NCBI GenBank assembly: GCA_013375475.1
Contig: JABXKD010000021.1
Location: 1-46,761, forward strand
Source of the DNA: Promethearchaeota archaeon
GTDB lineage: Archaea; Asgardarchaeota; Lokiarchaeia; Sigyniarchaeales; SOKP01
DNA length: 46,761 bases
Direction: 5' to 3'
Shown here piece after piece: positions 2,235 to 6,611 of the stretch (positions within the stretch are counted from its first letter, which is position 1; every line of letters begins with the position of its first letter). The translations under genes were made by a program, and so were the position numbers. The notes beneath the pieces are model-generated. The model was not told the DNA's origin and made no database searches. It worked only from the letters and a program-made list of their open reading frames with translations.

Positions 2235-2657
2235 ATGGAAGAACCATCTAGTGAAAAATTTGAGGATGATCCTAATATCGAAAAATTAAAAAGTAAAATT
2301 AGTTTTGGAATCAAATTTTGGCTAGAATTTGAAAATGAGGGGCATAAAAACATTTTGGGGTCTGGATGGGCAAATTTACTTGAACATATTGATATTAGTA
2401 ATAACAAGGAGCCTAAATCTTTGACAAAAGCAGCAAAAGAGTGTGGTTACTCTTACAAATACGCGTGGAACATTTTAAATAAAATAAAGGAAAGATCAGG
2501 AAAAACTCCTATAGAAACTAAAAAGGGGGGTCTTGGTGGTGGGGGATGGGTTAAATTAAACGATTGGGGTAAGTATTTATTGAAAACTTATAAAAATCTT
2601 CTAACCGAGTTAGAGGAGATTGAAAAGAAGCTCGAAAAATCTTTAAAAATCGATTAA
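2235..2657 (+). CDS. Stand-alone ModE-type winged-helix transcriptional regulator (no molybdate-binding domain)
   Basis: SLTKAAKECGYSYKYAWNIL HTH and KKGGLGGGGWVKL wing, typical of the ModE N-terminal domain; divergent from the MBL gene. Confidence 0.85.
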   Translation: MEEPSSEKFEDDPNIEKLKSKISFGIKFWLEFENEGHKNILGSGWANLLEHIDISNNKEPKSLTKAAKECGYSYKYAWNILNKIKERSGKTPIETKKGGLGGGGWVKLNDWGKYLLKTYKNLLTELEEIEKKLEKSLKID

Positions 2658-2812: not shown

Positions 2813-2820
2813 TTTATATA
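2813..2820 (+). promoter_or_regulatory. Candidate archaeal TATA box for the actin-like gene
   Basis: TTTATATA about 40 nt upstream of ATG 2859; the AT-rich background weakens the call. Confidence 0.35.
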
Positions 2821-2858
2821 AAAGAACATAGACTTTTAAAAATTTTAATTGATCAAGC

Positions 2859-4385
2859 ATGGCAATACCATTACCCGGAACTCCGATTATTGTCGACATT
2901 GGTTCAGCCTACACTAAGATAGGATTTGCGGGAGAGCCCAGTCCTAGGTTTGTTTTTCCAACTATCACCGGTACTGAAAAGTATAAAGCTGTAATGGTTG
3001 ATGTTAGCGCCCGAAATATATACATCGGATCAGACGCTTCAAAAATGCGAGGCGTTCTAAAAATAAAGCACCCTATCGAACGGGGAGCAATAATGGACTG
3101 GAATGATTATTACGAGATCTTAAATTACATTTTTTATTCACTATTAAGAGTTGAAAATCTTTCTCATTATCCCGTTTTGTATACTGAACCTCCGTTTGTT
3201 CAAAGAGAGACTAAAGAGTATATTGCTCGCGTTTTATATGAAACCCACAGAGTAAAAAGTTTAATAATGATTCCAACACCAATTCTTTCTTTATTTAGTG
3301 TAGGACTTACAACTGGAGTAGTAGTAGAGAGTGGTGACGGAACAACTTGGATATGCCCAATTCTGGGTGGAGAAATTGTTGATCAATCAGTACAAAAATT
3401 AACTTTAGCTGGAACAGATGTAAATCAACACTTAAAAAATTTACTTATGAGAGAAGGCATCAATATTGAATCAAGCGCAGTCGATGAAATAATTAAAGAC
3501 ATTAAAGAAAAAAACTGCTTTTTCGCACTCGATCCTAAACACCCTCCAAAGTTAGACGAAAGTTTTAGTTTTACCATGCCAGATGGATCTAATATTAATA
3601 TTCCAAATTATATCTTCCATGAAGCACCAGAAGTATTATTTAAACCTAACTTATTAGGGTATAATATCCTTAACATTCCACAAGCAGTAATAAATAGCTT
3701 GCAAGGTATTGATAAATATTATTGGAGCGATCTTCTTTCACATATTATGATATCGGGTGGAAATCTTTCATATTCTGGATTTGAAGAGCGGTTACGATCT
3801 GAATTGGTCCAATTAATCCCACAACTGGGAAAAATACCAAAACCTAAGATTGTGAAAACATCACGGGAAGAAAGGCAAAAAATGAAATTAAAAGAAAAAT
3901 CACAGAAGAAAGAAGATACATGTCCACACTGTGGTACGTTAGTAGATCTTACTGACGGTAAAGAGTTCTGTCCGTCTTGTAATGGTAGAATCGTTCTACC
4001 AGAGCTTTCAATTGGAAGCGTCAAACTAGATACAAATCCTAAAAGTGAAAAAGGAAAAAGAATTTGCCCTAATTGCAAAAAAAAAGTTGATGATGAAGAT
4101 TCGATTTTTTGCCCCTACTGTGGAAAAAGTTTTCCATTAACAGAGATACCGGAGGTACCTCCTGAGATCGTTAAGAATACTCCTCCTGCTAGAGAATTTT
4201 CTGGTTTTTACGAGGCATCGGAGGAAGTAGTAAGATTCTTTGTTCCCGAACACTTGCAGTTCGCCATTTTTAATGGTGCTAGTATACTCGGAAGCTTACC
4301 GAGTTTTCAAAATCTATTTGTAACTCATGAGCAATTTCAATCCAACAGCGCTACCTTATACAAGAATATTAGTGAAATTTTTTAG
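2859..4385 (+). CDS. Actin-family protein (Asgard actin-related protein) with internal double zinc-ribbon insertion
   Basis: Phosphate-1 IIVDIGSAYTKIGFAGEPSPRFVFP, HPIERGAIMDW, PVLYTEPP, phosphate-2 VVVESGDG, LAGTDVNQHL, MPDGSNI, APEVLFKP, SGGNLSYSGFEERL and C-terminal GASILGSLPSF all align with actin. The insert carries CPHC/CPSC/CPNC/CPYC. Confidence 0.95.
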   Translation: MAIPLPGTPIIVDIGSAYTKIGFAGEPSPRFVFPTITGTEKYKAVMVDVSARNIYIGSDASKMRGVLKIKHPIERGAIMDWNDYYEILNYIFYSLLRVENLSHYPVLYTEPPFVQRETKEYIARVLYETHRVKSLIMIPTPILSLFSVGLTTGVVVESGDGTTWICPILGGEIVDQSVQKLTLAGTDVNQHLKNLLMREGINIESSAVDEIIKDIKEKNCFFALDPKHPPKLDESFSFTMPDGSNINIPNYIFHEAPEVLFKPNLLGYNILNIPQAVINSLQGIDKYYWSDLLSHIMISGGNLSYSGFEERLRSELVQLIPQLGKIPKPKIVKTSREERQKMKLKEKSQKKEDTCPHCGTLVDLTDGKEFCPSCNGRIVLPELSIGSVKLDTNPKSEKGKRICPNCKKKVDDEDSIFCPYCGKSFPLTEIPEVPPEIVKNTPPAREFSGFYEASEEVVRFFVPEHLQFAIFNGASILGSLPSFQNLFVTHEQFQSNSATLYKNISEIF

Positions 4386-4530: not shown

Positions 4531-5640
4531 TTGAAAAACAGAGTCCGGAATTTATCATTTGCATTATTGTTAATTACTTTAATGTTGAGCATTACACCAA
4601 TAGCATTAGCAAAAACCCGTCAGAGTTATTTAATCGATTTTATATATAAAGATCAAAACAATGACGAAAGTTTTGGCACATCACCTAAGGATACAGCTAA
4701 CGCAATAGAAATTTTGGAAGAATTTAATGCTTATCTTATTGAAGTTCTATTTGAGGGGACTAAAAGCGTTGATATACCTGATTTAAAGGATTACCTCTTT
4801 GATGAAATTCAGACAATGTTTAATACTGAAAATATTGATATCTACAAAATATATCACTATCTAAAAACATTATACACATTAGAGCCGTCGCAGACTTTGT
4901 TAAATGCAACTTTACAAAATAAGATTTATAAATATATAAATAATACTTATCAGATTGGTGGAGGATTTAGTCCTACAAACACATCTAAAGTTGCAAATAT
5001 GGTCTCAACTTACTACATATATAATATATTTAATTTCATTGGAGAAACAGTTGAGAATGAGACTATTCATAAAACTTGGATATTATCATGTAATAATACT
5101 GACGGAGGTTATGGTGGGAACCCAACTTTAGCATCCACATTGATTACTACATATTATGCAGTTTATTTGATGAGTGAGTTAGGAACAGTTAATGATTTAG
5201 CTAATCTAGTGAGTACCCTAAATTACTTTAAATCCCTTTATATTGCTGATTCTAATAATCTTGTGCATTACGGTGGATACTTACCTGATTTATTTGCTGA
5301 AATACCATTATTAGGTAGCACACTCCTCTGCGTTGAAGGAATTAGTTTAATAGATGAGACTGAATTAAATGTTACCGCAACTTCCACTTGGGTGATAGGG
5401 CGCCAAAATTTTCTCGATGGTGGTTTTAGTGATTGGGCTGAAGGAATCGATCAAAGCTATTCTTCTATTAGTACGTCCTATTCTGCTTTTAAAATTTTAC
5501 AAATATTAGATAGACTAGTTTTGTTGGAGGAGGATACCTTCATGGTCGAGTTCGATTTCCTAATCCTTATTATTGTACTTTCAGTCGTAGCAGTAGTCGT
5601 AGTAGCTATTTTTTTGATTTTGCGTAGGAGAAGAATTTAA
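4531..5640 (+). CDS. Secreted, C-terminally membrane-anchored prenyltransferase/squalene-cyclase repeat (alpha/alpha barrel) protein
   Basis: N-terminal signal peptide (TTG start); repeats QIGGGFS, CNNTDGGYGG, YGGY, RQNFLDGGFS; C-terminal TM helix followed by RRRRI; several NxS/T sequons. Confidence 0.8.
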   Translation: MKNRVRNLSFALLLITLMLSITPIALAKTRQSYLIDFIYKDQNNDESFGTSPKDTANAIEILEEFNAYLIEVLFEGTKSVDIPDLKDYLFDEIQTMFNTENIDIYKIYHYLKTLYTLEPSQTLLNATLQNKIYKYINNTYQIGGGFSPTNTSKVANMVSTYYIYNIFNFIGETVENETIHKTWILSCNNTDGGYGGNPTLASTLITTYYAVYLMSELGTVNDLANLVSTLNYFKSLYIADSNNLVHYGGYLPDLFAEIPLLGSTLLCVEGISLIDETELNVTATSTWVIGRQNFLDGGFSDWAEGIDQSYSSISTSYSAFKILQILDRLVLLEEDTFMVEFDFLILIIVLSVVAVVVVAIFLILRRRRI

Positions 5641-5753: not shown

Positions 5754-6611
5754 ATGGGAAAAATATTAGATGGTAGAGAATTATCGCAGAAATTAAATTT
5801 TGAATTAAAAAAGAATATAAAATTGATTTCAGAAAAAACTGGAGTAAAGCCGAAGTTAGCGGGTATTCAAGTTGGTAATGATCCTGCGTCAGAATTATAT
5901 TTGAACATAAAGAGAAGGAGGTGCACTGAAATTGGAATTGAATCAATTTTAGTAAATTTGAAGCAAGATATTTCAAAAGAAGATTTAATAAATGAAATTG
6001 AAAAGTTAAACGCAGATAACACGGTTCATGGGATAATTTTACAACAACCTCTACCAAAAAAATTTAAACCCTTCACTAAAGATTTTAATGAAATAATCAG
6101 TCCTCTAAAGGATGTAGATGGGCTTCATCCAGTCAATAGGGGTAAATTATTTGACTACAATGAAGATCTTGTGCCCTGTACTCCAAAAGGAATTATAGCG
6201 CTTCTCGAGTATTATGATATAGAAATCAAGGGAAAATATGCTGTTATTATTAACCGCTCAAATTTAGTTGGGAAACCATTAATTTTCATGCTTTTAAAAA
6301 GAAACGCAACAGTATCAATTTGTCACACATCAACGGTAAATATAAATGATTACATTAAGAACGCAGATATTTTAATAACCGCTGTAGGTCAACCAAACTT
6401 CATCACTAAAGAAAAAATAAAAGAAGGTGTGGTTATAATAGATGTAGGCATCAGTAAAGTAAACGGAAAAACATGTGGGGATGTTGATTATCACGGTGTT
6501 TTTAATAAGTGTTCCTGGATTACTCCAAATCCTGGGGGCGTTGGCCCGATGACAGTAAGCTTTTTACTCCAAAACACGTTCTTAACCTATAAAAAACACT
6601 TTAAGATGTAA
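5754..6611 (+). CDS. folD: Bifunctional methylenetetrahydrofolate dehydrogenase/cyclohydrolase
   Basis: ILDGRELS, VHGIILQQPLP, KDVDGLHP, PCTPKGI, RSNLVGKP, NATVSICH, ITPNPGGVGPMT. Confidence 0.97.
   Translation: MGKILDGRELSQKLNFELKKNIKLISEKTGVKPKLAGIQVGNDPASELYLNIKRRRCTEIGIESILVNLKQDISKEDLINEIEKLNADNTVHGIILQQPLPKKFKPFTKDFNEIISPLKDVDGLHPVNRGKLFDYNEDLVPCTPKGIIALLEYYDIEIKGKYAVIINRSNLVGKPLIFMLLKRNATVSICHTSTVNINDYIKNADILITAVGQPNFITKEKIKEGVVIIDVGISKVNGKTCGDVDYHGVFNKCSWITPNPGGVGPMTVSFLLQNTFLTYKKHFKM

Follow-up and report, generated by a model that had tools for sequence, protein, structure and literature searches.

Architecture of the encoded protein

The locus described here raises the question of whether a gene in which an actin-like sequence is interrupted by two zinc ribbons is genuine, and, if so, what its product might do. 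It lies in a stretch of 46,761 nucleotides (hereafter the window; contig JABXKD010000021.1 of a Promethearchaeota archaeon, assembly GCA_013375475.1), in which one open reading frame (ORF) at positions 2859–4385 of the forward strand encodes a 508-residue actin-family protein plus a stop codon, referred to below as the Zn-ribbon actin-related protein (ARP). All motifs quoted in the preliminary description of this DNA, namely GFEERLRSELVQLIP, CPHC/CPSC, CPNC/CPYC and VRFFVPEHLQFAIFNGASILGSL, are included in this ORF. The Pfam Actin profile (PF00022) matches residues 9–338 of its product (E 7.6e-71, 239.3 bits against a cut-off of 27), and the region of residues 355–422 scores above the gathering thresholds of both Zn_ribbon_3 (PF13248; 40.9 bits, cut-off 27) and DZR (PF12773; 32.9 bits, cut-off 27.3). 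A phmmer search against the PDB returned 162 distinct chains, led by 9wc4 ('HC1 actin', 4.7e-73) and followed by eukaryotic actins and Arp1 at 226–234 bits. The actin alignments printed in this search all span query residues 6–326 and then restart at 458, to run to 502, with Ile326 and Val458 of the query both mapping to actin Ile327. The insert therefore comprises residues 327–457 (131 residues, nucleotides 3837–4229) and is located in the subdomain-3 loop around actin 323–328, a placement also obtained from a second alignment numbered by a 375-residue fungal actin. It is composed of two CxxC...CxxC zinc ribbons, three linkers and two anchor segments.

An AlphaFold2 model was computed from a 95-row alignment, with a predicted local distance difference test score (pLDDT) of 83.3 and a predicted template modelling score of 0.74, superseding an earlier model from 32 close sequences (pLDDT 66). 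Most of the core exceeds a pLDDT of 90, the ribbons reach 73–76, and residues 333–348, 381–398 and 427–444 fall below 50. Structural comparison of the model with actin chains in VIA-align gave a Z-score of 47.7 and root-mean-square deviations of 1.6–2.5 Å over 351–368 residues, and the Foldseek template modelling score, normalised to the target, was about 0.90. Globular (G-) and filamentous (F-) actin are matched equally well by the model core (Z about 47). As predicted, the protein thus has the four-subdomain actin fold, while the model pictures the insert as two small folded knuckles on flexible tethers, with short strands at residues 327–329 and 447–450 in the anchors. The parts of the gene are listed below; f1 denotes the GTDB family of the window's own genome and f2 to f7 other families, and conservation refers to an alignment of 81 f1 sequences, extended by 8 distant members to 89.

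2859–4385, forward strand: gene of the Zn-ribbon ARP (Pfam, phmmer against the PDB, ORF)
2859–3836, forward strand: N-terminal part of the actin core, residues 1–326, with subdomains 1, 2, 4 and most of 3 (Pfam match 9–338; PDB alignments 6–326; pLDDT mostly above 90; VIA-align Z 47.7)
3825–3848, forward strand: anchor 1, LGKIPKPK, residues 323–330, the conserved exit from the core (identity 0.80; ratio of nonsynonymous to synonymous substitution rates, dN/dS, 0.07)
3849–3911, forward strand: linker 1, residues 331–351, basic in f1 (pLDDT below 50 at 333–348; charge +3.8)
3912–3992, forward strand: zinc ribbon 1, residues 352–378, CPHC...CPSC (four Cys in 89/89; pLDDT about 73–75; Pfam DZR, DUF7577)
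3993–4058, forward strand: linker 2, residues 379–400 (pLDDT below 50 at 381–398; length 17–22 residues)
4059–4130, forward strand: zinc ribbon 2, residues 401–424, CPNC...CPYC (Zn_ribbon_3 at 401–423; four Cys in 87/89)
4131–4187, forward strand: linker 3, residues 425–443, proline-rich, IPEVPPEIVKNTPP (pLDDT below 50 at 427–444; length 15–19 residues)
4188–4229, forward strand: anchor 2, PAREFSGFYEASEE, residues 444–457, the conserved acidic-aromatic re-entry into the core (dN/dS 0.10; pLDDT climbing from 61 to 89)
4230–4382, forward strand: C-terminal part of the actin core, residues 458–508 (PDB actins 458–502; pLDDT 89–95)

The preliminary description had proposed an actin-related protein with a double zinc-ribbon insert of about 130 residues in the surface loop of subdomain 3, including a basic and a proline-rich linker. 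The ORF, the Pfam matches and the PDB alignments agree with this architecture, the PDB and fungal-actin alignments with the loop, and the mean net charge of linker 1 among the 81 family members as well as the IPEVPPEIVKNTPP segment with the character of the linkers. Only the edges had to be moved: the presence of the insert stands, and its borders, previously put at about 3825–4225, are set by the alignments at 3837–4229. Besides, a 119-residue antisense ORF (3719–4078, reverse strand) overlaps the insert-coding region and shows no sign of being a gene.

Distribution, constraint and origin of the insert

A chimeric assembly or a mis-called ORF would be the most trivial explanation of such a gene. 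Contigs from 4 public runs of 4 studies contain no joint at the insert: run X1 spans its 5' border, and both X1 and X4, a run from another study, span the 3' border. A word-indexed search with the insert alone retrieved 59 protein clusters at E ≤ 1e-3 out of 145 candidates, nearly all of them 498–517 residues long with Actin and zinc-ribbon Pfam matches. Scanning one genome per GTDB species yielded 169 pattern matches, 119 of which encode a relative; the 80 that were kept are 61–97% identical and near end-to-end (74 span residues 1–508, the least complete 1–497). Together with the purifying selection described below for every segment, these observations leave practically nothing of the artefact explanation, which we consider refuted. 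The chimera at the insert borders against which the preliminary description had cautioned was thus not found, as the borders are bridged in public-run contigs and the architecture recurs across independent assemblies, and homologues carrying the insert are abundant (59 clusters, 119 stretches, 132 of 134 f1 genomes).

With the insert as query, some match was obtained in 226 of 400 genomes of the phylum, those elsewhere than in f1 being mostly weak, generic ribbons; strong matches in frames of 497–539 residues are confined to f1, where 132 of 134 genomes have one. When an f3 orthologue was used as query, a long ARP was found at E ≤ 1e-60 in 37 of the 41 genomes of the order (f1 21/22, f2 1/1, f3 11/14, f4 4/4). 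The best whole-protein match in complete f3 genomes is an ARP of 531–560 residues with an insert, while one f7 genome and one genome of another class gave a plain actin of about 380 residues. Six f5–f7 genomes (82–94% complete) yielded no Zn-ribbon ARP; the best profile match in them is a lokiactin of about 380 residues. Unrelated long actin relatives with frames of 570–834 residues occur in f5–f7 genomes (L097, G123:C314, G125:C172, G124:C99), and L097 (G128:C5) carries a C-terminal extension of about 190 residues that is devoid of a zinc ribbon.

Going by the names in NCBI records, the Zn-ribbon ARP appears in both cultured species: P0273 (499 residues), a one-ribbon member of the clade, is named 'hypothetical protein [Candidatus Lokiarchaeum ossiferum]', whereas the two-ribbon P0288 (557 residues) bears the name 'zinc ribbon domain-containing protein [Promethearchaeum syntrophicum]'. 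Such public names obscure the protein, and some JGI records even call family members 'centractin'. One locus (L010), 85% identical and with the same neighbours, stands in a record titled 'Candidatus Nanopelagicaceae bacterium', and others carry Hod-, Hermod-, Thor- or Odinarchaeota in their titles; these titles conflict with the GTDB-based counts, were not relied on, and probably reflect mislabelled or misbinned records.

The eight ribbon cysteines are invariant in all 81 f1 sequences, which, like the recurrence of the architecture, exceeds by far what chance would produce. In the larger set the four cysteines of ribbon 1 are present in 89/89 sequences and those of ribbon 2 in 87/89, the other two lacking the entire ribbon. 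Mean pairwise identity in f1 is 0.75–0.76 for the core, 0.80 for anchor 1, 0.53 for anchor 2, 0.67 and 0.62 for ribbons 1 and 2, and 0.31–0.42 for the linkers, whose lengths are nevertheless held at 18–22, 17–22 and 15–19 residues, respectively, though their sequences drift. In f1, the net charge averages +3.8 in linker 1 and -2.3 in ribbon 1; in the divergent orthologues P0063, P0065, L085 and L087, linker 1 is acidic or neutral, not basic. By the Nei-Gojobori method (413 pairs, 80–97% identity), dN/dS was estimated at 0.06 for the core, 0.07 and 0.10 for anchors 1 and 2, 0.13 and 0.19 for ribbons 1 and 2, and 0.10, 0.35 and 0.43 for linkers 1 to 3. These estimates indicate that every segment of the insert is under purifying selection.

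The two ribbons resemble each other at the profile level (hhalign probability 98%, E 5e-14), and we infer that ribbons entered this lineage once. One-ribbon forms are found in family f4 (4/4 loci), in P0066 and in the f3 genus g19, and P0066 is the first branch of the Zn-ribbon clade, with a support of 99 in the Shimodaira–Hasegawa-like approximate likelihood ratio test (SH-aLRT). Because of these one-ribbon forms, a single ancestral ribbon was probably followed by a tandem duplication and one secondary loss, an order of events that is deduced from an unrooted clade. Equivalents of the anchors are retained as well, LGP[LIF]P for anchor 1 in f2–f4 and EYGGF and FGEAEEF for anchor 2 in f3 and f4.

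No stand-alone close relative of the ribbon pair was retrieved, only 7 short matches, five of them 167 residues long. These short proteins were considered as donors of the insert and rejected, as 167 residues is the distance from Met342 to the end of the ARP, consistent with C-terminal fragments arising from gene calls. The database entries concerned (P0266–P0272), 167-residue proteins named 'zinc ribbon' or 'YacG-like', are 77–83% identical to residues 348–430 and probably represent truncated gene calls. Searching the ribbon pair against its own genome gave weak generic matches only (E ≥ 2e-4), the best match of the insert among solved structures was the rubredoxin-like region of PknG at a non-significant E of 0.09, and a search of the ESM Atlas gave no usable match to it.

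The f3 orthologues have additional features. Long acidic tails have been added to them, and in 9 of 10 (L142–L150; P0288, P0273) the ribbons are followed by a K-rich motif, K[LI][DS]RKE[KR]KL[LI]KKT, after which an acidic stretch follows; in P0068 the corresponding letters are MLKKV. The counterpart in the window, residues 434–441 (nucleotides 4158–4181), is weakly conserved in f1. This motif has a likeness to the LKKT/LKKV of the actin-binding domains WH2 and thymosin; no Pfam profile of either kind matched three f3 tails at E ≤ 10, in a search whose HMMER filters easily drop such short motifs.

Phylogenetic analysis was performed on 75 of the 95 alignment rows (374 columns, the insert masked by a 60% fill rule) with IQ-TREE in 'quick' mode under LG+C20, SH-aLRT providing the only support values. 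All 21 Zn-ribbon rows form one clade (SH-aLRT 100, stem 0.67), apart from 5 lokiactins, 4 ARPs of the L002 type and the long-branched L004. Another 40 rows, among them a fungal actin (P0098), an Arp1 (P0107), a reptile Arp-T2-like protein and Asgard 'actins', likewise fall outside this clade. The protein is accordingly placed neither among the lokiactins, all five of which group elsewhere, nor as an Arp1 orthologue, as P0107, which scores 599 bits against solved Arp1, sits outside the Zn-ribbon clade. The backbone of the tree lacks resolution, and no Arp2, Arp3 or nuclear Arp is among the best 60 of the 162 solved-structure matches. Within f1, identity ranges over 59–95% for the Zn-ribbon ARP versus 96–100% for lokiactin; judged by these ranges, the former evolves much faster. 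A conserved architecture in a clade of its own supports the earlier suggestion of a specialised Asgard ARP.

Several f1 genomes encode a second lokiactin-like copy at 82–85% identity and some a third at 46–53% (L001/L113, G000:C284; loci L109–L138). The genome of the window itself encodes two further ARPs, the 370-residue L002 (G000:C218), with orthologues in f3 and a clade support of 100, and the very divergent 398-residue L004 (G000:C20), with a branch length of 2.55.

Nucleotide site, surfaces and possible function

We were interested in whether the nucleotide site and the filament surfaces of actin are retained in the Zn-ribbon ARP. Asp11, Gly13, Lys18, Gly156, Gly158, Lys213, Glu214, Gly301 and Gly302 are invariant in the 81 f1 and 8 distant sequences; with its phosphate-1, phosphate-2 and adenosine motifs kept, the protein is predicted to be competent to bind nucleotide. 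In actin, Gln137 and His161 position the hydrolytic water. Neither is shared with bona fide actins and lokiactin: position 137 is Thr in 79, Ser in 9 and Ala in 1 of the 89 sequences and Gln in none, and His161 is Trp in 81/81 f1 sequences and retained in one of the eight distant members (replaced in 88/89). Asp154 is Glu in 88/89.

For the comparison of surfaces, contact lists from the F-actin literature, not computed from a structure, were used. The pointed-face positions (D-loop, 61–65, 200–208, 241–247) have a conservation of 0.90 within the family and a lokiactin identity of 0.47, compared with 0.82 and 0.35 for the rest of the core. With the motifs AVMVDV in the D-loop, MRGVL and MPDG, this face is the most conserved surface of the protein. 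Lokiactin identity is 0.25 in the subdomain-3 patch 283–294, 0.25 in the W-loop, 0.14 at the C-terminus and 0.29 at the lateral contacts. Loop 322–328 and patch 283–294 are presumably longitudinal filament contacts, the loop touching subdomain 4 of the next subunit. The uninterrupted loop and conserved patch of a bona fide actin are both missing here, the former being split by the 131-residue insert and the latter having the low identity just given.

Based on these sequence features, we tentatively favor, as a possibility to be taken seriously and not as a settled assignment, a hydrolysis-impaired ARP that would form no filaments of its own, would dock onto lokiactin with its pointed face and would hold a partner with its tethered zinc knuckles. 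ATP would be bound and poorly hydrolyzed, so that the protein would be held in one state and would not enter canonical two-stranded filaments. Its pointed face would dock in the barbed-end groove of lokiactin, either of a monomer or of the terminal subunit of a filament. Its own barbed face is remodelled (patch 283–294, W-loop, C-terminus) and bears the insert, and therefore the addition of a further subunit would be hindered. One or two tethered zinc knuckles would then face away from the filament and hold a partner, and the protein could cap or anchor the end of a filament or serve as an adaptor of lokiactin. Ribbons that act as adaptors or that block filament contacts, both suggested in the preliminary description, would fit this anatomy. 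We further speculate, on a rather slender chance, that it is a dedicated end-anchor of lokiactin, in which the ARP would plug the barbed end and the zinc knuckles, with tethers about 20 residues long, would fasten it elsewhere; the target could be the envelope machinery encoded next door, or the protrusion tips or constrictions of the cultured strains. If true, this way of capping and anchoring actin filaments would have an evolutionary origin separate from that of CapZ, formins and dynactin in eukaryotes, and this would be the first function assigned to an Asgard ARP. An order-wide, strongly constrained ARP with a distinctive and easily deleted module, seemingly present in both cultured species, would offer a tractable entry point.

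Several observations weigh against this proposal. The lokiactin-likeness of the pointed face is not significant (17/36 versus 86/246 positions, Fisher p = 0.19). The barbed-end groove is fairly well kept (identity 0.50 at 139–148 and 345–356, with the terminal Phe), and for this reason a D-loop may still fit into the barbed face. Arp3 is said, also in the preliminary description, to bear an insert near the same loop and yet templates barbed-end growth, and therefore the insert described here need not block the addition of subunits. Moreover, the dN/dS values are rough, dS being about 0.9–1.0 and thus near saturation, and the tree resulted from a quick search from which 20 of the 32 close family rows had been thinned out and which included no Arp2 to Arp10 references.

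The retained groove leads directly to a rather unlikely alternative, namely that the protein does polymerize, alone or together with lokiactin, with the insert exiting sideways and the ribbons decorating the surface as docking sites. Both the D-loop and the groove are well conserved, assembly is known for other proteins of the actin fold that carry inserts, and the anchors, with their dN/dS of 0.07–0.10 and the predicted strands at 327–329 and 447–450, could form a short conserved stalk able to lead the insert out of the interface. Such filaments would, however, have to be built with Gln137 gone in 89/89 sequences and His161 in 88/89, with a lokiactin identity of 0.29 at the lateral contacts and 0.25 in the longitudinal patch of subdomain 3, and with the insert in a loop which in actin contacts subdomain 4 of the following subunit. 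To our minds it is unlikely, too, that the ARP is linked to nucleic acids, as are the nuclear Arps of chromatin remodellers; DNA or RNA would then be bound by the ribbons together with the basic linker, and the actin fold would act as a nucleotide-dependent scaffold. Zinc ribbons are often nucleic-acid binders, linker 1 is basic in f1, a ModE-type winged-helix gene is conserved upstream, and the NCBIfam profiles of RNA polymerase subunit P and a 'Zn-ribbon RNA-binding protein' matched weakly (E 0.003–0.03). This idea, also raised in the preliminary description, nonetheless loses weight since only in f1 is the linker basic, being acidic or neutral in the four divergent orthologues named above; besides, ribbon 1 is net negative, the f3 forms bear long acidic tails, no repeated operator-like boxes were detected upstream beyond AT-rich chance matches, and all family matches related to nucleic acids lie far below their cut-offs.

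A more doubtful alternative is that the insert acts on its own molecule, a ribbon or linker folding onto the barbed-end groove or the nucleotide cleft and gating the access of partners, possibly in response to zinc or redox state via the Cys4 sites. In length the tethers suffice to reach the groove, which is conserved, the linker lengths are kept while the sequences drift, and the K-rich motif conserved in f3 has a likeness to groove-binding LKKT motifs. On the other side, the ribbons are not confidently docked on the core in the AlphaFold2 model, the linkers having a pLDDT below 50, and the WH2/thymosin profile search mentioned above gave no match.

Gene neighbourhood and comparison with known systems

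The genes and expression signals around the Zn-ribbon ARP gene are listed below.

2235–2657, forward strand: upstream neighbour, a 140-residue winged-helix protein resembling the N-terminal domain of ModE (TIGR00637, E 6.3e-14, below the curated cut-off)
2813–2821, forward strand: TATA-like box TTTATATAA, 46 nucleotides before the ATG, probably the gene's own promoter (same element at -46/-47 in 11 of 77 upstream regions, those of the closest relatives)
2849–2855, forward strand: TTGATCA, Shine-Dalgarno-like, 4 nucleotides before the ATG (TTGAT just before the ATG in many of 45 printed regions)
4531–5640, forward strand: downstream neighbour, a 369-residue prenyltransferase-like alpha-alpha toroid with hydrophobic N- and C-terminal segments (PF00432, E 1.2e-14; topology predicted from sequence)
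5754–6611: FolD, a member of the conserved gene order

The spacer upstream of the gene has a guanine-cytosine content of 19%, and we infer that TTGATCA would pair with the 3' end of the 16S rRNA. No conserved operator-like repeats were detected upstream, only AT-rich repeats of low identity that are not kept beyond close relatives. Contigs of one RNA library (X14) cover positions 2893–3716 only; as an RNA library can hold DNA, they are no proof of transcription, and the uncovered part carries no information. The winged-helix gene is found upstream on the same strand at 71 of 80 f1 loci and 9 of 10 f3 loci, and the prenyltransferase-like gene downstream at 78 of 80 and 9 of 10, respectively. 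Further members of the f1 gene order, counted over the same 80 loci, are a metallo-beta-lactamase (70), FolD (75), an unknown 151-residue protein (72), a DRG-type GTPase (69) and a DEAD/DUF5814 helicase (62). Three complete f3 genomes, at an ARP identity of about 36%, have kept together only the winged-helix, ARP, prenyltransferase-like and FolD genes; the flanks of the f2 and f4 loci extend to only about 1.2 kb, too short for a neighbour missing there to count as absent. Judging by this conserved order alone, the winged-helix, ARP and prenyltransferase-like genes, together with FolD, may form a functional cluster or operon.

According to a study on Ca. L. ossiferum, this organism has four actin homologues, lokiactin and three others that group with the ARPs of Asgard archaea and eukaryotes; all four were followed by reverse transcription quantitative PCR, lokiactin being several-fold higher (Rodrigues-Oliveira et al., 2022; PMC9834061). 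P0273 is attributed to the same species by NCBI and may be one of these three ARPs. The passages on ARPs in PMC9834061 mention neither a zinc ribbon nor an insert, and the word 'zinc' occurs 0 times in its main text, supplements aside. Likewise, the available text of a 2020 preprint on Asgard diversity names a Zn-ribbon domain solely among ubiquitous gene families, and that of a 2026 review (PMC12993045) does not discuss Asgard ARPs. A search of full texts, which did not extend to supplementary domain tables, found no paper in which an actin relative of Asgard archaea is described as having a zinc ribbon. The supposition in the preliminary description that no actin with this architecture had been characterised is in line with this result; as far as the literature search shows, the architecture is undescribed, while the protein class itself, actin-related proteins, is already known.

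With lokiactin and conventional actin the Zn-ribbon ARP shares the predicted four-subdomain fold, an identity of 33–37%, the invariant nucleotide loops, an actin-like D-loop and a partly kept barbed-end groove. It differs from them in the 131-residue zinc-ribbon insert, in the replacement of Gln137, His161 and Asp154, in its separate clade, and in a remodelled subdomain-3 patch, W-loop, set of lateral contacts and C-terminus. The C-P-x-C-G ... C-P-x-C-G knuckles are those of DZR, Zn_ribbon_3 and the small zinc-ribbon proteins of archaea (DUF7575, DUF7577), whereas in the present case the module is embedded within an actin fold.

Conserved inserts whose roles are specific to the complex have been described for Arp2 and Arp3, several of them in Arp3 (PMC4947185). 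The Zn-ribbon clade does not group with the Arp1 representative in our tree. Eukaryotic Arps with loop insertions such as Arp3, Arp5 and Arp8 follow the same principle as that proposed here, an actin core that no longer acts as actin and inserts that provide new binding, while none of the inserts of these three proteins is known to be a zinc ribbon. As the Zn-ribbon ARP shows, the gain of new functions by insertion of modules into loops of the actin fold, a hallmark of eukaryotic Arps, happens independently in Asgard archaea.

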